Positions 37,765 through 50,827 of a stretch of DNA of 50,832 nt are shown piece by piece. Source of the stretch: an uncultured bacterium (GTDB taxonomy: Bacteria > Patescibacteriota > Minisyncoccia > UBA6257 > GWB1-50-10). Position numbers and translations under genes: made by a program. The stretch's first letter is position 1; each line of letters begins with the position of its first letter. The notes under the pieces were generated by a model. It was not told the origin of the DNA. It was given only the letters and a program-made list of their open reading frames with translations, and did no database searches. The stretch spans positions 1-50,832 of the forward strand of contig CAIKKG010000014.1 in the NCBI GenBank assembly GCA_903827975.1, in the 5' to 3' direction.

Positions 37765-38056
37765 GCTTCATAATCAGATAAATCTGCCAGGCGTAGCGGA
37801 ATGGAAGGATTGGCCCTAGGAAATTTCCAGCTCGATTCTTTGGGGTGTATTCATCCACAATATCTAGAACATGGAACTGTTCTTCATCTGTCACACTTCT
37901 GCCGATATGTTTAGAAAGATATTCCATCATATCGTCTATATCCGTTATATTCATCTCAATTTCCTCTGGGTCTTTTGCAATCACATCTAAGAGTGTGTAT
38001 TTCGGAATGATGTCGGAGAGTTTTTTCCTTTTCGTGTGCTTATCCATATTGTGCAT
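37715..38056 (-). CDS. hypothetical protein (113 aa)
   Basis: ORF divergent from msrA. No motif recognised. Confidence 0.45.
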   Translation of the reverse strand: MHNMDKHTKRKKLSDIIPKYTLLDVIAKDPEEIEMNITDIDDMMEYLSKHIGRSVTDEEQFHVLDIVDEYTPKNRAGNFLGPILPFRYAWQIYLIMKHEGYYEEDKKENNGNS

Positions 38057-38080
38057 TCTCTATTTAGGTATAATAACAAT

Positions 38081-38647
38081 ATGACAGATGTACGCAATGA
38101 GCAGAATGCGAATGGAATAGCAGTATTTGGAGGAGGGTGCTTTTGGTGCACGGAGGCGATATTTAAGGAGCTTAGGGGTGTGATTGGGGTTACTCCCGGA
38201 TATACGGGTGGAACGGTTGCGAATCCTACATATGAGGATGTCTCGAGTGGGACGACGGGACATGTGGAGGCCACAAAGATTGAGTATGACCAAAAGGAAG
38301 TCTCATATAAGACACTTCTTACGGTATTTTTTGCGACTCATGACCCAACGAGTTTGAACCGACAAGGGAATGATGTGGGTACGCAGTATCGATCCGCAAT
38401 CTTTTATGCGGATGAGATGCAGAAAGAGGAGGTGAAAAAGTTTATTGAGGAATTAAATAAGGAGGGTGGGAATGCGATTGTGACTGAGCTTAATCCCCTT
38501 TCTGAATTCTATGTGGCTGAGGATTATCATATGAATTATTACGAGAGTCATAAGAATGCACCATATTGCATGCTTGTGATTGCGCCGAAGCTTGAGAAAC
38601 TACATCACACATTTGCAGAATTATTAAAATCAAACGAACAAAAATAA
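38081..38647 (+). CDS. msrA: peptide-methionine (S)-S-oxide reductase
   Basis: AVFGGGCFWCTEA and GYTGG motifs. ATG at 38081 lies inside the 38036 ORF. Confidence 0.93.
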   Translation: MTDVRNEQNANGIAVFGGGCFWCTEAIFKELRGVIGVTPGYTGGTVANPTYEDVSSGTTGHVEATKIEYDQKEVSYKTLLTVFFATHDPTSLNRQGNDVGTQYRSAIFYADEMQKEEVKKFIEELNKEGGNAIVTELNPLSEFYVAEDYHMNYYESHKNAPYCMLVIAPKLEKLHHTFAELLKSNEQK

Positions 38648-38653
38648 TTATTA

Positions 38654-39034
38654 ATGAAAAAAGACGAAGAATTACCGAAGGATTTGTATGCTATCGCTCG
38701 AGAGAAAGGAACCGAGATGCCCTACACCGGAAAGTATTGGAATGAGCATTCTGCAGGGACATATAAATGTGCGATATGTGGCGCGGAGCTTTTTAGTTCG
38801 GATACGAAGTTTGATTCAGGAACTGGGTGGCCGAGTTTTAGTGAGCCGACTAACTTACAGCACATACAACTAACAACTGATAACAGCGGAGGGATGCAAC
38901 GGACCGAGGTTACGTGCAAAAATTGTAGGGCACATCTTGGACATTTGTTTGATGATGGGCCGAGTGAGAAAGGTGGAAAGAGATATTGTATTAATTCCGC
39001 ATGTCTTGAGTTAGATAAGAAAGGAGTACAATAA
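38654..39034 (+). CDS. msrB: peptide-methionine (R)-S-oxide reductase
   Basis: CAICGAELFSSDTKFDSGTGWPSF, CKNCRAHLGHLFDDGP and RYCINS motifs. Confidence 0.95.
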   Translation: MKKDEELPKDLYAIAREKGTEMPYTGKYWNEHSAGTYKCAICGAELFSSDTKFDSGTGWPSFSEPTNLQHIQLTTDNSGGMQRTEVTCKNCRAHLGHLFDDGPSEKGGKRYCINSACLELDKKGVQ

Positions 39035-39456: not shown

Positions 39457-40482
39457 ATGAATACAGAAAAGAAACATCAGTCGCTTATGAAGAAGCATCA
39501 CACAGAAAGTGTGAAGAAGAACCTTGCAGGAGTTTCGACTCCGCATGGCTTTACTCTTGATGATGCTATTCGTTCAGGTGTGGAAAATGAAGATTCGGGT
39601 GTCGGCATTTATGCCGGTGACGAAGAGTCGTACGTTCTTTTTTCAGAGATTTTTGATCCCGTTATTGAAGAGTATCACGGTGGCTACAAGCCAACTGATA
39701 TGCATACTGCGGATCTTGATTCAGAGAAGCTTATTGCGGACAGCATTGATCCTGATGGCACCTTTGTCGTCTCGACACGCATCCGTGTGGGCCGTAACTT
39801 GAAGGGCACAGGATTCTCCCCCGCCATCAAGCAGGACGAGCGTCGTGAAGTGGAACAGAATGTAGTGAATGCACTTTCTACGTTGTCCGGCGAATTGAGC
39901 GGAGAGTATTATCCGATTTTGGGCATGAACGAAGAAATTCGTGAAAGGCTCGTCACTGACCATTTCTTATTTAAGCAGGGTGACCGATTCCTCGCATCCG
40001 CAGGCGCAAACCGCGACTGGCCGGAAGGACGAGGTATTTTCCACTCAGGCGACAAGCGTTTTCTTGTCTGGGTCAATGAAGAAGACCAGCTTCGCATTAT
40101 TTCCATGCAGGAAGGTGGTGGCATCCGAGAGGTGTTCGAACGTCTCTCAGGTGGCATCCGCACATTGCAGGAGAAACTTGCGTTCGCATACACGGACCAT
40201 CTCGGATATCTTTCGAGCTGCCCGACGAACCTCGGAACTGCGATGCGCGCCAGCGTGCATGTGAAGTTGCCGAAGCTAGGCAAGAACGAGGAGCACTTGA
40301 AGCGAATCTGTAAGGAATTGAAACTCTCTGTGCGTGGCATTAATGGTGAGCACTCAGATAGTGAAGGTGGTGTCTATGACATTTCGAACAAACAGCGCCT
40401 TGGAATTTCCGAGGTGAATGCAGTAAACCTGCTCATTCGAGGTGTTGGCACTCTCATTATGCTTGAAAAGTGCGCAGACTAA
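39457..40482 (+). CDS. two-domain phosphagen kinase, arginine-kinase type (ATP:guanidino phosphotransferase)
   Basis: N-terminal guanidino-specificity region SGVENEDSGVGIYAGDEESY..FDPVIEEYHGG. Catalytic region DHFLFKQGDRFL, VWVNEEDQLRIISMQ, active-site CPTNLGT, VRGINGEHSDSEGGVYDISNKQRLG. Collinear with arthropod arginine kinases as I recall them. Confidence 0.9.
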   Translation: MNTEKKHQSLMKKHHTESVKKNLAGVSTPHGFTLDDAIRSGVENEDSGVGIYAGDEESYVLFSEIFDPVIEEYHGGYKPTDMHTADLDSEKLIADSIDPDGTFVVSTRIRVGRNLKGTGFSPAIKQDERREVEQNVVNALSTLSGELSGEYYPILGMNEEIRERLVTDHFLFKQGDRFLASAGANRDWPEGRGIFHSGDKRFLVWVNEEDQLRIISMQEGGGIREVFERLSGGIRTLQEKLAFAYTDHLGYLSSCPTNLGTAMRASVHVKLPKLGKNEEHLKRICKELKLSVRGINGEHSDSEGGVYDISNKQRLGISEVNAVNLLIRGVGTLIMLEKCAD

Positions 40483-40585: not shown

Positions 40586-43500
40586 TTATCGTGATGTCTG
40601 CATTTTCTTTAACACATCCATCATGTAATTTAACTGTTCAATTATTGATGCCTGAATTTGAGAATTATCTGGCTTAATAATAGCGGGTTGGATAATTATA
40701 TTTCCCGTACTATATTCGCATGCCTGCGATTGCCAGTTATCTGTGGACAAGCAGACATTTAGTTTATACACGCCAGGGTCAACATTTGGTGAAAATATTG
40801 CAGAATTTGAACCAGCAGTACCCTGAGTCGATTGCTGTTCCTGCTGATACCCAGAGTCCGTTGTTAAATAGATTTTTATTGATCCATTAACATTTTGATT
40901 CCATTTTGCAGTAATGGATCTCATCGGCATGTATGAGCCAGACTGTGGAGATGTCAGGGTAACTGTAGGAGTTACACTTATTATTGGTGTTGGTATAAGA
41001 GTGAAGCTCGATAAATTGCTATAGCCGGTACCTTTGGCAATAACACGAATATTATAGTACTGACTAGAACCAGATCCCTGCAATTTTAGAACCTCATCTG
41101 TAAGTTTAAGGATTACATCATCTGCCATTGTGAACTGAACAGAGTCTGTTGTGGAATTTGTTGAGAATGAGATGTTATTTGAGGTTATCGTAGTTTTCAG
41201 CACCCCTCCACTATAAAACTCAACTGCATAAACATATGCGAGATTTGTACCATTAATAGTAACTGTGGTATTTATATCTCCGCGTACAGGATTAACCGAC
41301 GTTATTTTTGGCGATGTTTCTGAATTGAGGCAGAATGTACCATCGCTTTGATCAAGATTTGTTCCGTATGGTAATTGCAAAGCAATTTTATAGTCGCAAC
41401 CCGCTACTGGCGTTGAGTTATTAGTGGTTGCGCCTGCGTCCCACCATATGGTGCCTGATCCTATACTTCCATCATCTGAACCGGTTTGAAGGGTGGAAAA
41501 AATCGTACCCACATTAACACCTCCTTTGACCAGAACAACACTTGGCTTTGCGCCAGACTTGTATTTATACGTTATGATCGTCGACTGGCCCTGGGTGAAC
41601 TGTTCTCCACCATTTGGACTTACTACTCTATATGTCGATGTTGCAACGCTATCACCCCTCATTGTTACGGTGGCAAGTGACGCACTGTTGATGGAAAGCT
41701 GGAACGTATCCCCATTATTTCCCGTGTTCGCTGTCTTAACTGTTAGATATCTGAAGCCGCCGATAGCAATATCGCGAGCCATCTTAGAAACATTTGAGAT
41801 ATCAAGGAAGCAGATTCCCTTATCGCAAGGAGTGTTTGATCCATACGAGTACATCGTGTCGCTTTGTGAGCCACCATCAGCAGAAGCGAACAGATTAAAT
41901 TTCATTTCTGACTGAGTGCTACCGCTATTCGAAATCGTGAATGGTTCATTCAGAACATATAGAGATGAGCCATTGTTTGTGAGCTTGAATACTCCAATGG
42001 TTTGTCCCGCTGAGGTTCCAACTTGCGTTGCGCTGAGTGGTGAAATTGAAGTTATTGTAGGAGTTACACTTATTATTGGTGTTGGTATAAGAGTGAAGCC
42101 ATAGGAATTGCTATAGCCGGTACCTTTGGCAATAACACGAATATCATAGTACTGACTAGAACCAGATCCCTGTAACTTTAGAACCTCATTTGCAAGTTTA
42201 AGGATTACATTATCTGCCATTGTGAACCGAACAGAGTCTGTTGTGGAATTTTTTGAGAATGAGATGTTATTTGAGGTTATCGTAGTTTTCAGCACCCCTC
42301 CACTATAAAACTCAACTGCATAAACATATGCAAGATTTGTACCATTAATAGTAACGGCGGTATCTATATCTCCGCGTACAGGATTAACCGACGTTATTTT
42401 AGGAGCGTCAGACTGAAGTGCATTTAATGTGAAATTAAAACGGTTACTATTGCATCCGCCTTGGCAGGCATTTGTAACCACTCCAAGTTGGTATGTGCCT
42501 GGTTCCACATTTGCAGCAAAGATGCTAGCTACGGTAAATACAACACTATTTGCGGATACTGAAGATGGGAAGATGGTCGCCGCAAGAGAGTTATTTGAGT
42601 TGTAGAATTCAACATTTGATGTGCCGGAAAGATTAGTACCATAAATAGTTACACTAGTTCCAGAAGTTCCTGAGGTTGGCGAAATTGAAGAGATTGATGG
42701 CATGCTTTTGGTATTTGGATAAGTAAGCGTGAAAGCGACCTTGTTACTTGTTCCGTTTGATGTTACAACATCAATCCAAAATGTTCCTGAATATCCGAGT
42801 AAATCCATTAAGCTCTTTGTTATCAAAAACCCTGCTGGACTTGCAGCTGAAATATCTGAACCCGATAGTGTGGCTAGAATATTTCCATTACCAGAAACAA
42901 ATTCAATCGACTTTACAACGCCGTAGATATTATTTCCATATATAGCAATAGTATTATTTATCGTACCCTGTGATGGTCTGATATCTGTAATATATGGGGT
43001 TGCTGAATTAGATTCAATTAGGATGCTAATGCTAACTACATTGCTGCCAACGCCACCACCTAATAAAACCTGAATTACATCAGAACCAACTCCTGGGGGT
43101 ACTACAAATGTAAGTTGTGAACTGGAGAGTACTTTTGCCCATGCACCCACTGAAGTTTTTAGAAATACTACTGACGCACCTTCTGTAAAGTTAGTCCCAT
43201 ATACTGTAACAGTATCACCTATTTTTGCAGTTGTCGGATAAATTGAAGTGATTGTAGGAGTGGTAGATGTGGATGTTATTATTTTTGAACTAATTACTGT
43301 AAATGACTGAGTTCTCGCAATTGCGCAGCTATATGTTTTCTCACAGAGGCCCGTCTGGGTCATTGAGAGTGTGTATGATGCCGGTATTACATTTGTCGGG
43401 ATTTTAAACGCCTCCTTATTAGCATAAGCCGTAGAATATGATTTTACGTTTCCGAGAGTGTACTCATAACCGCCCTTAACATCGGATGTTGAGATTCTTA

Positions 43501-44200
43501 CTACAAACTGGTCACCAATTTTTGATGGTTTGTATGTTAATCCAATCTTGTCACCGACGGTGAAGGTTTCTCCGCCAGATGGGTTTACAATTGAAACCGA
43601 TGAAGATGGCTTCTTCTTTGCTAATTCTGTTTCGGAGCCACCAGAAGTTGCAGATGAGCTATCTAATGAAGCACTTCCTGATGCTGAACTGTTTGATGAA
43701 GAATTGTCTGAGGTTGAGCTAACATCTGAGCCAGATGACTGTGTTACGCAAGAACTTAGACCACCAAGTGCTTTAAGTGTTGCGCTATCAACCATTCCTG
43801 AGACACCAAGACCGTTTTCATCCTGAAAACTCTTAAGAGCAATCTGTGTCATTGAACCAAAATAACCCGTCGGTTTAGCGGATAAGTATCCGTTATCGTT
43901 TAGGATTTTTTGTAATTTTGATACGGCTGAGCTTGAGCTTCCTTTCTTTAGTCCGCTAAAGCCTGATGTGTCACAGGACGTAGTTACTGAGGTTATTGAA
44001 TCAGATGAAGCACTTGAGCCAGACGATGAGCCTGACTGGCTATTTTGCGAATCTACTTTTGCTTGAAGCAGCTTTAACTGCGCCATCAAAGCCTGAATCT
44101 GAGAGGACAGATCTGATGTCTGTGCCTGACCTTTTGCTGGGATGACTACTCCTGCAAAAATGAGAACTACTGCAAAACCTATGACGAGAAACCTTTTCAT
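40586..44200 (-). CDS. 1204-aa secreted surface protein: signal peptide, PG_binding_1-like domain, Ser-rich linkers, multiple IPT/TIG-like repeats
   Basis: MKRFLVIGFAVVLIFAGVVIPAKG signal. LQKILNDNGYL...GYFGSMTQIALKSFQ peptidoglycan-binding repeat. Recurrent ITS(I/V)xPxxGxxxTxVTIxGTN(F/L) modules. Confidence 0.85.
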   Translation of the reverse strand: MKRFLVIGFAVVLIFAGVVIPAKGQAQTSDLSSQIQALMAQLKLLQAKVDSQNSQSGSSSGSSASSDSITSVTTSCDTSGFSGLKKGSSSSAVSKLQKILNDNGYLSAKPTGYFGSMTQIALKSFQDENGLGVSGMVDSATLKALGGLSSCVTQSSGSDVSSTSDNSSSNSSASGSASLDSSSATSGGSETELAKKKPSSSVSIVNPSGGETFTVGDKIGLTYKPSKIGDQFVVRISTSDVKGGYEYTLGNVKSYSTAYANKEAFKIPTNVIPASYTLSMTQTGLCEKTYSCAIARTQSFTVISSKIITSTSTTPTITSIYPTTAKIGDTVTVYGTNFTEGASVVFLKTSVGAWAKVLSSSQLTFVVPPGVGSDVIQVLLGGGVGSNVVSISILIESNSATPYITDIRPSQGTINNTIAIYGNNIYGVVKSIEFVSGNGNILATLSGSDISAASPAGFLITKSLMDLLGYSGTFWIDVVTSNGTSNKVAFTLTYPNTKSMPSISSISPTSGTSGTSVTIYGTNLSGTSNVEFYNSNNSLAATIFPSSVSANSVVFTVASIFAANVEPGTYQLGVVTNACQGGCNSNRFNFTLNALQSDAPKITSVNPVRGDIDTAVTINGTNLAYVYAVEFYSGGVLKTTITSNNISFSKNSTTDSVRFTMADNVILKLANEVLKLQGSGSSQYYDIRVIAKGTGYSNSYGFTLIPTPIISVTPTITSISPLSATQVGTSAGQTIGVFKLTNNGSSLYVLNEPFTISNSGSTQSEMKFNLFASADGGSQSDTMYSYGSNTPCDKGICFLDISNVSKMARDIAIGGFRYLTVKTANTGNNGDTFQLSINSASLATVTMRGDSVATSTYRVVSPNGGEQFTQGQSTIITYKYKSGAKPSVVLVKGGVNVGTIFSTLQTGSDDGSIGSGTIWWDAGATTNNSTPVAGCDYKIALQLPYGTNLDQSDGTFCLNSETSPKITSVNPVRGDINTTVTINGTNLAYVYAVEFYSGGVLKTTITSNNISFSTNSTTDSVQFTMADDVILKLTDEVLKLQGSGSSQYYNIRVIAKGTGYSNLSSFTLIPTPIISVTPTVTLTSPQSGSYMPMRSITAKWNQNVNGSIKIYLTTDSGYQQEQQSTQGTAGSNSAIFSPNVDPGVYKLNVCLSTDNWQSQACEYSTGNIIIQPAIIKPDNSQIQASIIEQLNYMMDVLKKMQTSR
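40964..41308 (-). repeat. 345-bp intragenic direct repeat, copy 1
   Basis: Aligns without indels to 42056..42400. Roughly 15-20 mismatches by eye. Confidence 0.85.
42056..42400 (-). repeat. 345-bp intragenic direct repeat, copy 2
   Basis: Offset of 1092 bp (364 codons, in frame) from copy 1. Confidence 0.85.
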
Positions 44201-44329: not shown

Positions 44330-45580
44330 CTATTCTACTACTGAATTTCCCGCGACAAAGCCAGTCGTCCAGCAGAGCTGAAGACTATATCCGCCAGATG
44401 GCCTATCAATGTCTAAAATATCGCCTACGAGATAAAGATTTGGATATAGACGTGAACGCATTGTTTTAAAATCAACCTCGCTGAGTGTTACCCCACCACT
44501 TGTGACAATCGCCTTATCAAGACCAAGGAGTTTATCAACATTCATTGGAATCGCTTTTAATAAATGAATGAGCTTTATGCGCGACTCACGTGTTACGCTG
44601 TGGCACTTTGTTTCTGGATTTATTCCAGAGAGTTCAATAATAATCGGTGCGATTGATGAGGGAATAAGATTTACGAGTGCATTTCCAAAATTTTTCTTAT
44701 CGTGCTCCTTAAACAATTCTTGAAGTTTTGTATTTAGCATTCCGTAGTCCTCCTTTGGTAATACATCAAGCGATAGAATCACGCTCCCATATTTTAAGAG
44801 CTCGCCCACATCCTTACTCATATTTAATATTGTTGGACCACTTAATCCAACATGTGTGAAAAGAATCTTTCCTTTTGAAACGCCCTGCTTCTCATTATTT
44901 TGAAAAATTGTGATTTTAACATTCTCCAAGCTAACACCTGAAAGTTGTCTGACCCATTTATCTTTTATTGCGATAGGTACAAGTGATGCCTCTGGCTTTA
45001 TGATTGTGTGGCCAATGTCTCTTAACCACGAATATCCGTCTCCAGTTGAGCCAGTTTCTGGGCGTGAGGTTCCTCCTGTTGCTATGATTACAGAATTTCC
45101 TCGGATTATTTTCTTATTTTTTAATTTAACTCCGATTATTTTTTTATCCTCGCGAGCTATCTCAACAACTCCCGAATTTGAAAGAATGGTCACATTGTGT
45201 GCCTTCATATATTCCGAAAGGACGTGTAGCACGGATTTTGAGGAGTCTGATGTTGGAAATACGCGCAGACCAGCCTCTACTTTCGTAGGCATTCCTTTTG
45301 TATGAAAAAATTCTAGTGTCTCCCCTACGCTCCACTGAGAAAATGCGGAAAATAAAAATTGTTCTGCCACCTTGAATTTTGCTAGAAGCTTTCTTGTATC
45401 AGTCTCCGCATTTGTGAGATTGCACCTGCCTCCACCCGTTATTAGAAGCTTCTTCCCGAGGGACTCATTTTTCTCAACTAAAAGCACGCGCGCGCCTTTC
45501 TCTGCGGCTCTTCCGGCTGACATCATTCCAGCAGGACCACCACCAACCACAATTACGTCCCAGACTGAGTTATCTTCCAT
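44330..45580 (-). CDS. HI0933/BaiN-like FAD-dependent oxidoreductase
   Basis: DVIVVGGGPAGMMSAGRAAEKGARVLLVEKN dinucleotide fold, followed by GKKLLITGGGRCNLTN. Confidence 0.85.
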   Translation of the reverse strand: MEDNSVWDVIVVGGGPAGMMSAGRAAEKGARVLLVEKNESLGKKLLITGGGRCNLTNAETDTRKLLAKFKVAEQFLFSAFSQWSVGETLEFFHTKGMPTKVEAGLRVFPTSDSSKSVLHVLSEYMKAHNVTILSNSGVVEIAREDKKIIGVKLKNKKIIRGNSVIIATGGTSRPETGSTGDGYSWLRDIGHTIIKPEASLVPIAIKDKWVRQLSGVSLENVKITIFQNNEKQGVSKGKILFTHVGLSGPTILNMSKDVGELLKYGSVILSLDVLPKEDYGMLNTKLQELFKEHDKKNFGNALVNLIPSSIAPIIIELSGINPETKCHSVTRESRIKLIHLLKAIPMNVDKLLGLDKAIVTSGGVTLSEVDFKTMRSRLYPNLYLVGDILDIDRPSGGYSLQLCWTTGFVAGNSVVE

Positions 45581-45650: not shown

Positions 45651-47066
45651 TTAACTTAATAGATAATTCATCGCATCTTGTGCGAAATAATCCCCCTCAT
45701 CGTCCTTCATTATGAGTTTCAGGAAGCTCAGATCATCACCCATTGTAATTATTGGTGCCTCACTAGGATTCCCGAGATCAACTGCGGACATGAGTCCATT
45801 GCAGAGACAGCCACGACCTTCACAATCCGCAACGTTACCACCTTTCACAAAGAAGTTCGTTAAGGGTTCACTCGCACATCTGTATCCTATCGTTCCATCG
45901 GCCTTTTCGTAAAGTGAGACCAACTCACCCTGATTACAAATGCGAGCTCGTTCATTGTAGACACCTGAATCAGCAATTGTTTCACCAAGCTCAACAACCT
46001 TAAAAGGAAATCCAGTTGGTGAGATTCGCATGTCTGTTCGAATTGTTAGTTCGTTATTAAATCCAAGCTTACGGATTTTTTTGCGAAGTTCAGGATTCAT
46101 TCCAGATTCCTCACAGAGTGCGAAGATTGAACCGGCTTGAATACCACTTGCGCCGACTGAGAGTGCCCATTTTAATTTTTCTGGTGATGCATGCGAGCCA
46201 CCAATCCAGAATGGAATCCCAAGTTTGGCAAGTAAGGGATAATCAACAAAATCTTTTTCACCATACACTGGAAGCGGTTCACCCTGTGCACCCAACAAGA
46301 GCTTTCTCGGTGGCGCATTGTGTCCGCCAGCAGTTGGTTCCTCAACTACGAATCCATCAATACTTCCTGCTGGCAGTTTCTTCATGAACATATTTGCGAG
46401 CAGATTTGATGCGATGATTGGAACGAATCCAGGCTTCTTCATTTTGGGAAGTCGGTCTCCAAAAAACTTCTCGGCATCAAACTTCATTGTGTGACTTTTA
46501 ATATCATCCCCAATTACTGGAACTCTGTAGCTTGCTTCTCTTCCATTATAAATATCATCAATCAATTTCGGAATCTGAAGCGGAATGCCAGCACCCATTG
46601 TTATGTAATCAACTCCAGCAAGCATTGCACCAGTAATTGCATACACATGATGCATGGCAATTTTTTCCAGATAATTAATGCTTATTGGATTTGGATTATT
46701 TTCCTTTGCTAGCCAGACGAATGCAAAATTTGAGCAAACCGTAAGAGCAATCAGTAAGCTAGTCGGGTTTACTGTGAACATTGGAACTGACTTAAAAGAC
46801 TTTCCTTTCGGAATACCACCCTCAACAAAATAGATTTTAATGAGAGGTTCTGAAATATGCGGGAATGGAAAATGCGAAAGTGCACGACGCATGTGTCCGC
46901 CAGGATCACCTAACTGCAAAACTCTTGGAAGTAGTCTTTGCAAGACCACTCCAGAGATTGTTCCTCTTCCTCCTAAAAGTGATACTGAACGTGCAAGGTG
47001 CCATCCTGACACATTTACGCCCATTCCACCCTGAATGACCTTCGGTAATGCCGTGTATGATTCCAT
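45651..47066 (-). CDS. nitronate monooxygenase (NMO/2-nitropropane dioxygenase)-family FMN TIM-barrel oxidoreductase, long form
   Basis: VIQGGMGVNVSGWHLARSVSLLGGRGTISG N-terminus and GASGIQAGSIFA are typical of NMO/FabK/PfaD-like proteins. Confidence 0.75.
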   Translation of the reverse strand: MESYTALPKVIQGGMGVNVSGWHLARSVSLLGGRGTISGVVLQRLLPRVLQLGDPGGHMRRALSHFPFPHISEPLIKIYFVEGGIPKGKSFKSVPMFTVNPTSLLIALTVCSNFAFVWLAKENNPNPISINYLEKIAMHHVYAITGAMLAGVDYITMGAGIPLQIPKLIDDIYNGREASYRVPVIGDDIKSHTMKFDAEKFFGDRLPKMKKPGFVPIIASNLLANMFMKKLPAGSIDGFVVEEPTAGGHNAPPRKLLLGAQGEPLPVYGEKDFVDYPLLAKLGIPFWIGGSHASPEKLKWALSVGASGIQAGSIFALCEESGMNPELRKKIRKLGFNNELTIRTDMRISPTGFPFKVVELGETIADSGVYNERARICNQGELVSLYEKADGTIGYRCASEPLTNFFVKGGNVADCEGRGCLCNGLMSAVDLGNPSEAPIITMGDDLSFLKLIMKDDEGDYFAQDAMNYLLS

Positions 47067-47262
47067 GATTTTCTCCTTTTTGAATCATCTATTTATGAAA
47101 TTGTGTAGTGCTATTAATAGGTATACCACTCGTAGATGAGCGTATCAAGTAAGAATAAACACGATGCACCAAATAATGAACCTTAGTTGTATTATTTATA
47201 TAGCAATCTGTTGGGTCTTAAAAAAACTCTATTTTTGTGCTAGACTAGTTTACATTACAATT

Positions 47263-48096
47263 ATGCAATTAAAACAAATTCAAAAACTAATTCTGTCAAC
47301 TTTTATCGTCACGTCATTCAGTGGTTATGTATATTGGTTGCGTTCCAGCGCCATGGTTGTTACAAATGTGGCACCTGTAACAGATGAGAACACAAAGGTA
47401 ATAGATAAGGTAGTTCCGGTTGTTCCAGTAGTTCCAGTTGTTCTACCAGTGATAGAGCCAGTAAAAGAGCCAGTAAAAGTAGTTATTCCAGTCGTTGTTC
47501 CTGAGACGCCAGTTACTCCAACTGAGACAACAACAACCTGCATAACAACATACACGCTTATTGATGTCCCTGTAATTAATTCAAATCGCGAGGATGATGA
47601 TGAGGATAATCGCTCATCGGTTCCTGCCACGGTTCAGAGGCAAGTTCCTGTAGTTACTTGTACTACTTCTAATGTTGCGTCAGCTGGACCAAAACCCCCA
47701 GTAAGTGTTCCAGTTACACCTGCACCAACTCCGACACCAACTCCGACACCAACTCCGACACCAACTCCGACACCTACACCTGTACCTACACCAACTCCGA
47801 CACCTGTACCGACCGGAATGTATAAGAATGGAACATATGCTAATACAATAACGTATTCGCGTGGCGTGTTTAATGTTTCTCTAATAGTGAGTGGTGGAAA
47901 AATTACCAATGTTCAGTTTACTGATACCTCAGGAAGTGGAACATCACAGCAGATTAATGCGGGAGCATTTCCTATATTGAAGACTGAGACAATCTCATCA
48001 CAGAGTGCGAGCGTGAATACTGTTTCTGGCGCGACACTTACAAGCAATGCATACCGTGCGTGGCTTACAACAACACTTGCAAGCGCAAAAGTGTAA
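47263..48096 (+). CDS. exported FMN-binding-domain protein with Val/Pro/Thr-rich linker (predicted ApbE substrate)
   Basis: TM anchor, VPVV and PTPT low-complexity linker, and a C-terminal FMN_bind-like domain with flavinylation motif NTVSGATLTS (SGAT at 48025..48036). ATG at 47263 is preferred. Confidence 0.8.
   Translation: MQLKQIQKLILSTFIVTSFSGYVYWLRSSAMVVTNVAPVTDENTKVIDKVVPVVPVVPVVLPVIEPVKEPVKVVIPVVVPETPVTPTETTTTCITTYTLIDVPVINSNREDDDEDNRSSVPATVQRQVPVVTCTTSNVASAGPKPPVSVPVTPAPTPTPTPTPTPTPTPTPTPVPTPTPTPVPTGMYKNGTYANTITYSRGVFNVSLIVSGGKITNVQFTDTSGSGTSQQINAGAFPILKTETISSQSASVNTVSGATLTSNAYRAWLTTTLASAKV
47725..47772 (+). repeat. 4 x 12-bp perfect tandem repeat (ccaactccgaca) encoding (PTPT)n, with degenerate units to about 47812
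   Basis: Counted by hand inside the linker of the FMN-binding protein gene. Confidence 0.85.
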
Positions 48097-48839
48097 TGAA
48101 GCGAACCGAGATTATTATGGGAATGCCAGTAACCGTTGAGATTACTGATCGTTTTGTAACTGACGCGGATCTTGAATATATATTTTCTTACTTCAAGAAA
48201 ATTGATGAGCAATTTAGTCCGTATAAAGAGACAAGTGAAGTTACCAGATTAAATAGAAAGGAAGTAAATGAAAGTAGCTGCAGTGAGGAGATGAAAGAAA
48301 TTCTAAAGCTTGCAGAAAAAACAAAGCAGGAGACGAGAGGATATTTTGATGTCTGGAATAATAATGTTTTTAATCCATCGGGAATTGTTAAGGGTTGGGC
48401 AATATATGAGGCTTCTAAAATATTAGATGATAAGGGATTCAAGAATTTTTATGTAGATGCGGGTGGCGACATAGAGGTTCGAGGAAAAAATGAAGATGGT
48501 GATTTGTGGCGAATAGGAATACGAAACCCGTTTGATATGCATGCTATTATTAAGACATTAGCCGTAACCGACTGTGGAGTCGCAACATCAGGAACATATG
48601 TACGCGGGCAGCACATTTACGACCCACATGAGCCCGAGAAGGAGCTTAAGGATATGGTGAGTGTCACAGTTATAGGGCCAAATGTGTTGGAAGCGGATAG
48701 ATTTGCAACAGCAGCATTTGCGATGGAGGAAAAAGGAATTGTATTTATTTCAGCAATACCACACTTAGCTGGATACTCAGTTGATTCCAAGGGAACCGCA
48801 ACAATGACAAATAATTTTGATTCGTTTGTTTTAAAATAA
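48096..48839 (+). CDS. apbE: FAD:protein FMN transferase (ApbE family)
   Basis: IIMGMPVTVEI N-terminus, GWAIYEA, YVDAGGDI, GVATSGTY and ADRFATAAFAM motifs. ATG overlaps the upstream stop (TAATG). Confidence 0.85.
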   Translation: MKRTEIIMGMPVTVEITDRFVTDADLEYIFSYFKKIDEQFSPYKETSEVTRLNRKEVNESSCSEEMKEILKLAEKTKQETRGYFDVWNNNVFNPSGIVKGWAIYEASKILDDKGFKNFYVDAGGDIEVRGKNEDGDLWRIGIRNPFDMHAIIKTLAVTDCGVATSGTYVRGQHIYDPHEPEKELKDMVSVTVIGPNVLEADRFATAAFAMEEKGIVFISAIPHLAGYSVDSKGTATMTNNFDSFVLK

Positions 48840-48850
48840 AATAAACCTAT

Positions 48851-50374
48851 ATGCAAGTAATTGATTCATTTCTCAATAAAATAACAATGTACCGGTTGGT
48901 GCTTTACTATCTTGCAGTTCTTCTTGGTATAGCATTTATATTAAGTTTTTTTGGCTTACTCCCATTTACTCCCGTTGAGTTACTTGTGTCAGTTGTTACT
49001 ATAGTCCTCATATCGTGGGGCGCTAATACATTATTCGGTTTTGTTTTCAATGCTCCTACGAATGTTGAATCAACTTTTATTACAGCTCTCATTCTTGCGC
49101 TTATAATAACTCCGCAGACATTCGCACATTATAGTTTGTTTCTGCCTTTTCTAGTCTGGGTCTCAATAATTGCAATGGCGTCAAAATTCATTTTTGCTAT
49201 TGGCAATAAGCACGTATTTAATCCTGCGGCTGTAGCAGTTGTAATTACGGCATTTGCAATAAATCAGTTTGCGAGCTGGTGGATTGGCTCTGCTTCAATG
49301 CTTCCTTTTGTTCTTATTGGTGGATTTCTTATTGTGAGAAAAATACGAAGGTTCGATATGGCATTCTCATTTTTCATTGTTGCTCTTCTTACCATTACCA
49401 TTTCTGGCCTAATGAGCAATCAGAGTATTGGTTCAATTATGGATCAGGCACTTCTTGGTTCTCCACTATTCTTTTTTGCATTCATAATGATTACTGAGCC
49501 ACTTACCACGCCTCCAACGCGTTGGTTAAGAGCTTCTTACGGCGCTCTCGTTGGATTTCTTTTTGCTCCCGCAATTCATTTGGGTTCAATCTACTCGACC
49601 CCCGAACTTGCACTACTTGTCGGTAATTTATATTCATACGCAATTAGCCCAAAGCAAAAATTAATATTGCTTTTGGATAGAAAGGAAAAGGTTACTCCAA
49701 CTATTTATGATTTTGTATTTAAGGCAGATAAGCCATTTAATTTTGAACCAGGACAATATCTAGAGTGGACACTTGGACACTTCCGCCCAGATTCCAGAGG
49801 AAATCGCAGGTATTTTACAATTGCCTCATCACCTACTGAAAATGAAATTCATCTTGGTGTGAAATTTTACGAACCCGCAAGTAGTTTCAAAAAGGCACTA
49901 GCATTTATGAGTAATGGAAATGAATTGGTCGCATCGCAACTTGCCGGTGACTTTGTAATGCCACGTGACCCATCTAAAAAGCTCGTATTCATTGCTGGTG
50001 GAATTGGTGTTACTCCATTTCGTAGTATGGTTAAGTATCTCTCGGATAAAGGTGAGAAGCGTGACATTGTTCTACTATATTCAAATAGAACTGCTGATGA
50101 GATTGCATTTAAGGAAATATTTGATGAGGCTGGTCAGAAGTTTGGAATGAAAACTGTGTATGCTGTTACAAATGCTGATGAGAATCTTCCTGCTTGGTGC
50201 TGTGGAGGAATGATTAATGCAAAGATGATTATGGAAAGCGTTCCTGACTATAAAGAAAGAATGTTCTATATCTCTGGACCAAAGGTAATGATTGATGCGT
50301 TTACTATAACACTTCAAGGTTTGGGTGTTGCACGAAATAAAATAAAGACTGATTTTTTCCCGGGATTCGTATAA
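48851..50374 (+). CDS. fusion protein: RnfD/NqrB-like polytopic membrane domain plus FNR-type FAD/NAD(P)H-binding reductase domain
   Basis: N-terminal half has KFIFAIGNKHVFNPAAVAVV and FAFIMITEPLTTPP, resembling the RnfD/NqrB GxNxFNPA and FFMxTDPxTxP motifs. C-terminal half has RRYFTIAS (RxYS/T FAD motif) and FIAGGIGVTPFRSM (NAD(P)H motif). Confidence 0.8.
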   Translation: MQVIDSFLNKITMYRLVLYYLAVLLGIAFILSFFGLLPFTPVELLVSVVTIVLISWGANTLFGFVFNAPTNVESTFITALILALIITPQTFAHYSLFLPFLVWVSIIAMASKFIFAIGNKHVFNPAAVAVVITAFAINQFASWWIGSASMLPFVLIGGFLIVRKIRRFDMAFSFFIVALLTITISGLMSNQSIGSIMDQALLGSPLFFFAFIMITEPLTTPPTRWLRASYGALVGFLFAPAIHLGSIYSTPELALLVGNLYSYAISPKQKLILLLDRKEKVTPTIYDFVFKADKPFNFEPGQYLEWTLGHFRPDSRGNRRYFTIASSPTENEIHLGVKFYEPASSFKKALAFMSNGNELVASQLAGDFVMPRDPSKKLVFIAGGIGVTPFRSMVKYLSDKGEKRDIVLLYSNRTADEIAFKEIFDEAGQKFGMKTVYAVTNADENLPAWCCGGMINAKMIMESVPDYKERMFYISGPKVMIDAFTITLQGLGVARNKIKTDFFPGFV

Positions 50375-50378
50375 TCTT

Positions 50379-50408
50379 AAAACCCCCGCTTGTTGCGGGG
50401 GTTTTATT
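50379..50408. terminator. bidirectional intrinsic terminator
   Basis: Stem aacccccgc / loop ttgtt / stem gcgggggtt, followed by a T-run. Confidence 0.7.
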
Positions 50409-50416
50409 CATTTAGC

Positions 50417-50827
50417 TTACTGAGCCTGTATAGGGCGTGGCATGAATGCTCTTAGTTGAATTGTTTGTGCTGTTACACTTCCGTCGGAATTTGCTGTTCC
50501 ATTTGCTGTAACATCTTTTCCAATTTCAAGATCAGTTGCAGTTCCATCGGTTGATTTAGTTATTTTTGTTGTTCCTGAGAAGAATATAAATTTAGAACTT
50601 CCATCCTGTGCCTTCACAGTAATGCTTTTATCATCCTTACTCACAATTGAACCTGAAATAAATCCAGCATTCTGCATTCCACCTCTGCGTGTTGAACTGC
50701 TATTCATTCCACCAGTTCGCTGGTATCCATTCTGACTTACGGCCTGACCTTTTGGAGCTCCAAATGTGGAACCTGCCCAGAAACTTACAAGTGCTACAAC
50801 AACCACAATAACGCCCCAAACAACCAT
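50417..50827 (-). CDS. secreted hypothetical protein (DUF5666-like beta-rich C-terminus)
   Basis: TM/signal segment VVWGVIVVVVALVSFWAG, then a G/S/T-rich region. The start lies 5 nt from the window edge, so the N-terminus may be incomplete. Confidence 0.5.
   Translation of the reverse strand: MVVWGVIVVVVALVSFWAGSTFGAPKGQAVSQNGYQRTGGMNSSSTRRGGMQNAGFISGSIVSKDDKSITVKAQDGSSKFIFFSGTTKITKSTDGTATDLEIGKDVTANGTANSDGSVTAQTIQLRAFMPRPIQAQ

Follow-up and report, generated by a model that had tools for sequence, protein, structure and literature searches.

The closest described relatives of the locus considered here are the 'NQR/RNF-like systems' of Meheust et al. 2021 (eLife, PMC8238504), flavinylation-associated gene clusters which carry a fusion of PF03116 and PF00175 and have ApbE and/or FMN_bind encoded within five genes of that fusion. 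According to the searchable text of that paper, 127 such clusters were recorded, mainly from Actinobacteria and the Candidate Phyla Radiation (CPR). For Ktedonobacter racemifer, an AlphaFold-multimer model of the two-subunit complex was presented by Huang et al. 2024 (bioRxiv 10.1101/2024.03.13.584918; PMC11334425), in the searchable text of which the RnfD-like subunit is said to have lost the flavinylated Thr of NqrB/RnfD, with the FMN_bind domain docking on the outer face, where canonical RnfD/NqrB bears its covalent flavin mononucleotide (FMN). The DNA analysed here (the window) is a stretch of 50,832 nucleotides from an uncultured member of the Patescibacteriota (assembly GCA_903827975.1, contig CAIKKG010000014.1). 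Between positions 47263 and 50374 of its plus strand lie three genes, encoding an anchored FMN_bind protein (gene 1), the flavin transferase ApbE (gene 2) and a fusion of an RnfD-like membrane domain to an FNR module (gene 3). Judged by sequence and gene order, this operon is an ordinary member of the published, widespread and already described NQR/RNF-like system, and it probably encodes a stand-alone two-subunit transmembrane electron conduit along with its own maturation enzyme.

Both parts of the published definition were found at the locus, as PF03116 (residues 144-265) and PF00175 (residues 380-483) occur together in gene 3, and FMN_bind and ApbE are encoded immediately upstream on the same strand. 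The trait described by Huang et al., an RnfD-like subunit without the flavinylated Thr, is likewise seen in gene 3. Also shared are a CPR home with relatives in Chloroflexota and Actinobacteria and the proposed one-way flow of electrons from NAD(P)H to the outside; nothing essential differs, the peculiarities of this copy being a longer V/P/T tether and an Asn at position -5 of the acceptor motif. An earlier reading of the same DNA from its letters only (hereafter the sequence-only reading) had proposed that this pairing had no characterised representative. With regard to biochemistry this holds, no biochemical study of any NQR/RNF-like member having been found in the literature searched, whereas the architecture itself had already been published and named. 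Its description of the genes fared better: the FMN_bind/ApbE/RnfD-like::FNR set was recovered from the open reading frames (ORFs) and Pfam calls, all three ORFs being real at the coordinates given, and the NTVSGAT motif within the FMN_bind domain, the long V/P/T linker, the overlap of the gene 2 start with the gene 1 stop and the sequence motifs of gene 3 were all found as it had described them.

Gene 3 would provide the passage across the membrane. Its two Pfam matches, to NQR2_RnfD_RnfE (PF03116, E 2.6e-9, 37.3 bits against a cut-off of 27.7) and to NAD_binding_1 (PF00175, E 2.3e-14, 54.4 bits), are accompanied by HVFNPAA (121-127), TEPLTTPP (215-222), RRYFTIAS (319-326) and GGIGVTPF (383-390), which are invariant or near-invariant among 21 aligned homologues. 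That the N-terminal domain should score as RnfD/NqrB-like had been set beforehand as the point on which the sequence-only reading could fail, and it did score so in the Pfam match, in a profile search and in a fold comparison. A family profile of the N-terminal 272 residues matched Azotobacter vinelandii RnfD in the PDB (8ahx_D, E 1.7e-5), the sole significant RnfD alignment pairing residues 154-260 with RnfD 221-327; the part of RnfD preceding the aligned residues had no confidently aligned counterpart in gene 3 by this profile. An AlphaFold model of the N-terminal domain (pLDDT 80.8, pTM 0.79) returned RnfD or NqrB as all 15 of its top 15 Foldseek matches in the PDB (probability 1.00, TMq 0.55-0.69), with urea and ammonium channels ranking far behind. 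This kinship emerged only with the N-domain profile and a separate N-domain model, as a single-sequence phmmer search of the PDB with whole gene 3 gave FNR relatives only and the fold search with the whole protein was dominated by FNR.

For the C-terminal domain, sequence matches in the PDB comprised NADH-cytochrome b5 reductase, flavohaemoglobin and NqrF, and Foldseek matches to FNR-family structures ranged from E 1e-18 to 1e-13, with values as low as 7e-18 for flavohaemoglobin, NqrF and b5 reductase. The motifs RxY[ST] for FAD and GGxGxxP for NAD(P)H, which mark the FNR family together with its beta-barrel plus Rossmann fold, are present as the invariant RRYFTIAS and GGIGVTPF. All 14 Lys/Arg residues of the loops and termini fall on the side of the FNR domain and none on the other, and the N-terminus, C-terminus and FNR domain are therefore predicted to be cytoplasmic. 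No conserved [ST]GA[ST] motif for covalent FMN was found in the membrane domain among the 21 aligned homologues. The tetrapeptide GSAS at residues 146-149 was considered as a cryptic flavinylation site and rejected, being variable across the same set.

Gene 1 provides the presumed electron-accepting partner. Residues 204-269 match FMN_bind (PF04205, E 5.7e-7, 30.5 bits against a cut-off of 22) and align with a solved ApbE-flavinylated FMN-binding domain (8p2a_A, E 1.2e-8), SGAT lying over SGAT. The acceptor, Thr258, is encoded by the ACA codon at 48034-48036 within VNTVSGAT and sits 19 residues before the C-terminus of the protein. The motif agrees with Dxx[ST][GS]A[TS] near the FMN_bind C-terminus, by which ApbE substrates are recognised, with Asn replacing Asp. 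In its family form, [DNS]xx[ST]GA[TS], it was present in all 70 gene 1 homologues, among which Asp dominates at position -5, Ser also occurs and about one fifth have Asn.

At its other end, gene 1 begins with MQLKQIQK-LILSTFIVTSFSGYVYWL, which fits the conserved MKKxxLS...F..Y anchor of 68 homologues. The start was placed at 47263 on account of this fit; an ATG further upstream, at 47164, from which the protein would gain another hydrophobic segment, was ruled out, as the homologues begin at the MKK-anchor. A lipoprotein form was ruled out too, a lipobox being found in none of the 70 homologues. More Lys and Arg flank the helix on its N-terminal than on its C-terminal side in 47 of the 68 homologues, the reverse being true of four. 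The helix is followed by a linker which is P/T/S/A-rich across the family and V/P/T-rich here. As the protein thus combines an N-terminal helix, this charge bias and such a linker, it is predicted to be held by a signal anchor that is not cleaved, and to carry its FMN domain outside the cell. The linker is about 165 residues long, 62% of them V, P or T, and is underlain by tandem DNA repeats at 47410-47479 and 47723-47810, the latter encoding (PT)n. It is the longest of the family sample (protein length 277 residues against a median of 183.5) and would let the FMN domain range well off the membrane.

Gene 2 matches ApbE (PF02424, E 6e-41, 141 bits) and aligns with Vibrio cholerae ApbE (6nxi, E 4.9e-18), with retention of the ATSG motif and of the catalytic His in QHIYDP, a residue which is replaced in the V. 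cholerae variant structure 6nxj. Its start was assigned to the ATG at 48096 because the homologues all open with MK(x)TR(x)(x)MGMP, which excludes the GTG at 48060 where the listed ORF begins. The A of this ATG is shared with the TAA stop of gene 1 (TAATG), through which gene 2 is presumably translationally coupled to gene 1. In the source genome (760 kb in 42 contigs, 97% complete), genes for FMN_bind, ApbE and an RnfD-like protein occur once each, in every case in this operon, and gene 1 is therefore the only recognisable substrate of gene 2.

In the proposed mechanism, ApbE would move FMN from flavin adenine dinucleotide (FAD) onto Thr258 of gene 1. Cytoplasmic NADH would then reduce the FAD of the gene 3 FNR domain, a non-covalent flavin in the RnfD-like domain would carry the electrons across the membrane, and the covalent FMN on the gene 1 protein, docked on the outer face as in the model of Huang et al., would receive them. 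Finally, the tethered FMN domain would pass them to an acceptor that the cluster does not encode. NADH is weakly favoured over NADPH as the donor, on the strength of the relatives resembling b5 reductase and NqrF and of an acidic residue in YSNRTADEI. This residue we take to be a sign of NADH use, by likeness to cytochrome b5 reductase and nitrate reductase. What the cell most likely gains is the regeneration of NAD+, proposed for a cell in whose 760-kb genome neither cytochrome bd nor a UbiA/MenA quinone-synthesis gene was matched; another possible benefit is the reduction of an external or host-derived acceptor such as Fe(III), O2, soluble flavin or quinone. A conduit from NAD(P)H to the outside was also what the sequence-only reading had proposed, and it agrees with all tests run and with the published model of the same architecture.

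The operon was also compared with better known systems. With Na+-NQR and Rnf it shares the RnfD/NqrB fold (TMq up to 0.69), an NqrC/RnfG-like subunit bearing SGAT, maturation that depends on ApbE and an FNR module resembling the FAD/NADH domain of NqrF. Of the three marks by which a canonical Rnf or Na+-NQR was tested for, the fold alone was found: RnfA/RnfE-NqrD/NqrE (PF02508) had no match in the genome, and the RnfD-like domain, onto which the FNR module is directly fused, has no covalent-FMN Thr. NqrA and Fe-S centres are missing, and neither the operon nor its flanks encode a ferredoxin-binding subunit of the RnfB/RnfC type. Electron flow is semicircular in those complexes and presumed to be one-way here. 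Flavin-based extracellular electron transfer in Listeria monocytogenes is similar in that an ApbE-type enzyme of a monoderm flavinylates a tethered surface FMN_bind protein, which hands NADH-derived electrons to outside acceptors. Listeria, however, crosses the membrane by way of Ndh2 (NDH-2), the quinone pool and EetA/B, it makes FmnB and PplA as lipoproteins, and its extracytosolic FAD comes through a transporter dedicated to that task. In the operon described here the crossing would fall to one RnfD-like::FNR fusion, no quinone-synthesis gene was found and ApbE is leaderless. The prokaryotic NOX of Streptococcus pneumoniae (8qta), which was among the fold matches of gene 3, also joins a polytopic domain to a C-terminal FNR-type domain and moves NAD(P)H electrons across the membrane. 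In its membrane, however, NOX has a ferric-reductase domain of six helices and two haems, unlike the RnfD/NqrB-fold domain of gene 3, which presumably uses flavin and depends on a flavinylated partner protein.

Most of the remaining doubt about the conduit concerns the membrane side of flavinylation and of the FMN domain, and several findings weigh against it. The sequence-only reading of function overlooked that gene 2 contains no signal peptide, lipobox, transmembrane segment or any hydrophobic window, which fits an exported target poorly. The reading frame is closed just upstream of the start, an upstream start supplied a leader in none of the 68 homologues with their N-terminus on the contig, and none was found in four more divergent members (adjoining fusions of 32-41% identity) either, so that an ApbE without export signal is a trait of the whole family and not peculiar to this locus. 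Bacterial ApbEs for exported targets are normally lipoproteins, whereas leaderless ones are known for cytoplasmic targets (PMC12052999). Furthermore, TatC (PF00902) had no match in the genome, which makes export of a folded flavoprotein unlikely; as ApbE is leaderless and TatC was not found, an outward FMN domain requires a flavinylation route that is as yet unexplained. No terminal electron acceptor is encoded near the operon, and FAD synthetase (PF06574), flavokinase (PF01687) and an ECF S-component (PF12822) had no match in the genome. Several flavoenzymes, as well as the FAD-requiring ApbE, are nevertheless encoded there, and because none of these three families was matched, flavin cofactors must, on this gene content, be imported by an unrecognised route.

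Three ways of accommodating the leaderless enzyme may be considered. The C-terminal tail of gene 1 may receive its flavin while still in the cytoplasm, either ahead of Sec translocation or in the course of it, ApbE may reach the outside by an unrecognised route, or the FMN domain may stay cytoplasmic. That the family ApbE acts in the cytoplasm, with the FMN_bind domain flavinylated before or during Sec export or else never exported, is a serious possibility, though one on which our judgement leans to the negative. The ApbE of Klebsiella pneumoniae described in PMC12052999 offers a parallel, having no signal peptide and being encoded beside its FMN_bind target; that target, however, is a soluble cytoplasmic fumarate reductase, whereas the target here has a conserved anchor and a domain predicted to lie outside. 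Leaderless ApbE is not discussed in the searchable text of Meheust et al. or Huang et al.

The distribution of the cassette bears on its possible role. For the gene 3 fusion, over 7,900 homologues are present in the database; the top 120 are all of about 500 residues with the same two domains, their annotated sources being Patescibacteria lineages. With one genome scanned per species, a relative of the fusion was found in at least 592 species; the best 80 of these are nearly all Patescibacteria, with a few Chloroflexota such as Dictyobacter aurantiacus (54% identity). Of 300 further genomes sampled evenly from the phylum, about 28 had a full-length fusion, and others had a stand-alone FNR or a stand-alone RnfD-like gene only. 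Co-occurrence across genomes, which the sequence-only reading had put forward as a check, was evident at the 80 loci: an FMN_bind homologue adjoined the fusion in 70 and an ApbE homologue in 70, with the order FMN_bind-ApbE-fusion maintained in most. When 1,159 flanking ORFs were clustered, no conserved fourth gene that might be a terminal reductase was seen, no family beyond the core trio occurring in more than 22 of 81 loci. Recurring neighbours were generic (ABC/MacB-type exporters, an ECF sigma factor, two-component regulators and a DUF5666-like protein).

Variants of the cassette were also observed. Some Patescibacteria have an RnfD-like gene of about 292 residues without the FNR domain (G047:C70, which is L091 4258-5770, and G096:C134), directly adjoined in L091 by a leaderless ApbE, and some other genomes have a stand-alone FNR homologue of about 235 residues only; split or donor-less versions of the cassette therefore exist. 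At three further loci (L085, L093 and L095, 32-43% identity to gene 3), the fusion is adjoined by a transmembrane-anchored protein of 138-172 residues without the [ST]GA[ST] acceptor motif, and no ApbE was detected near the fusion in L093 and L095. These may be variants with a non-flavinylated partner.

Among the neighbours are transporters of metals, which raises the alternative that the module is mainly a ferric (metal) reductase, its tethered FMN reducing extracellular Fe(III) for uptake. An NRAMP-type transporter family was found in 6 of the 80 loci, at times as the immediate neighbour of the fusion, and five loci had a heavy-metal P-type ATPase; in the searchable text of Meheust et al. 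(PMC8238504), the iron transporter VIT1 is reported from six NQR/RNF-like clusters. Together, the NRAMP and P-type ATPase neighbours are a weak hint that some copies may serve metal reduction. As the main role of the module this is unlikely, however, since metal neighbours occur in fewer than 10% of loci and in no part of this window, and the operon here is not flanked by a metal transporter.

A rather improbable arrangement is one in which all flavin chemistry is cytoplasmic, the FMN_bind anchor lying with its N-terminus out and C-terminus in, so that the domain would be flavinylated inside by the leaderless ApbE and serve as an inner-face mediator between the FNR and RnfD-like domains of an inward-facing membrane oxidoreductase. 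The absence of a leader in 68 of 68 homologues, the failure to find a Tat system and the service of known leaderless ApbEs to cytoplasmic targets such as the Klebsiella fumarate reductase (PMC12052999) would all suit it. The MKK-anchor and the charge bias of 47 to 4, however, predict the opposite orientation, N-in and C-out; long P/T/S/A-rich linkers are typical of extracytoplasmic tethers, the homologous NqrC and RnfG are periplasmic, and the published multimer model, as described in the searchable text of Huang et al., places the domain on the outer face. Redox-driven Na+/H+ translocation by the RnfD/NqrB-like domain, which would make the module a minimal ion pump and not a passive wire, is very improbable, for although the fold is preserved and polar intramembrane residues (N59, N71, E73, K120, H121, N124 and E216) are invariant in the gene 3 family, the NqrD/E-RnfA/E subunits are missing and the domain is some 45-100 residues shorter than RnfD/NqrB, without the covalent-FMN loop.

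The features of the locus are collected in Table 1. With an overlap of 1 nt between genes 1 and 2, a gap of 11 nt between genes 2 and 3 and a terminator 3' of gene 3, the three genes appear to be one tight co-transcribed unit. A promoter scan gave no convincing strong sigma-70 consensus in the divergent intergenic region, and no Shine-Dalgarno sequence was found ahead of any of the three genes. The two upstream flavoenzymes to which the sequence-only reading had drawn attention, one NMO-like and one HI0933-like, are present as described; as they recur in only 0 and 1 of 80 related loci, respectively, they are regarded as incidental neighbours and were ruled out as parts of the system.

Table 1. 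Positions of the operon, its parts and its immediate surroundings in the 50,832-nucleotide window
Feature	Coordinates	Strand	Basis or remark
HI0933-like gene, upstream, divergent	44330-45580	-	Pfam calls
NMO-like gene, upstream, divergent	45651-47066	-	Pfam calls
Divergent intergenic region 5' of gene 1, presumed operon promoter region	47067-47262		Sequence read
Gene 1, 277-residue membrane-anchored FMN_bind protein, NqrC/RnfG-like subunit, predicted ApbE substrate	47263-48096	+	PF04205
Predicted uncleaved N-terminal signal-anchor helix of gene 1, residues 9-26, LILSTFIVTSFSGYVYWL, K4 and K8 before the helix	47287-47340	+	Homologue comparison
Low-complexity V/P/T-rich linker of gene 1 with VVP and PT repeats, residues 27-195	47341-47847	+	Composition
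FMN_bind domain of gene 1, residues 204-269, flavinylation motif VNTVSGAT	47872-48069	+	Pfam and structure alignment
Gene 2, ApbE FAD:protein FMN transferase, 247 residues	48096-48839	+	PF02424
Gene 3, 507 residues, PF03116 and PF00175 fusion	48851-50374	+	Pfam
Gene 3 N-terminal RnfD/NqrB-fold polytopic membrane domain, residues 1-266, about 10 helices	48851-49648	+	Pfam, profile, model
Gene 3 C-terminal FNR-type FAD/NAD(P)H domain, residues 270-507, plus stop codon	49658-50374	+	Pfam, fold
Strong bidirectional intrinsic terminator hairpin, 12-bp stem, 7 G-C pairs, T-run	50378-50406		Between the operon and the convergent gene 50417-50827

The convergent gene, on the minus strand, encodes a small transmembrane-anchored Gly/Ser-rich protein with a weak match to DUF5666, homologues of which recur no more than 7 kb from the cassette in 10 of 81 loci, where genes for an ECF sigma factor and for MacB/HlyD-type exporters are often present as well. 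Adjoining genes for MsrA (PF01625) and MsrB (PF01641), both without signal peptides, are found at 38036-39034 on the plus strand, and 6 of 81 loci have an MsrA gene at a distance of up to 7 kb from the cassette. Two other genes of the window deserve mention. At 39457-40482 on the plus strand, a complete phosphagen (arginine) kinase of eukaryote type (341 residues) is encoded, in which the N-terminal domain PF02807 is combined with PF00217, the catalytic domain. Its matches to arthropod arginine kinases reach about E 1e-113 and that to a two-domain arginine kinase of a sea anemone (4rf6) E 7e-228, as against only about E 1e-21 for the bacterial protein-arginine kinases McsB; such an enzyme is unexpected in a Patescibacteria genome of 760 kb. 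At 40586-44200 on the minus strand, a secreted protein of 1204 residues carries a peptidoglycan-binding domain (PF01471), four IPT/TIG domains and a near-identical internal duplication of about 120 residues, '...PKITSVNPVRGDI.T.VTINGTNLAYVYAVEFYSGGVLKTTITSNNISFS...'.

The leaderless ApbE is the only part of the cassette that was judged worth an experiment. If it does act in the cytoplasm, the published picture of 'extracytosolic flavinylation' would be revised for hundreds of species of Patescibacteria and Chloroflexota, and flavinylation before or during export, with a flavin-bearing chain threaded through the membrane, would be without precedent among ApbE substrates as a sequence of steps. 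Many ultra-small, host-dependent bacteria may have no membrane redox device besides this cassette, and the identity of its acceptor would reveal how such cells shed reducing power or get iron.

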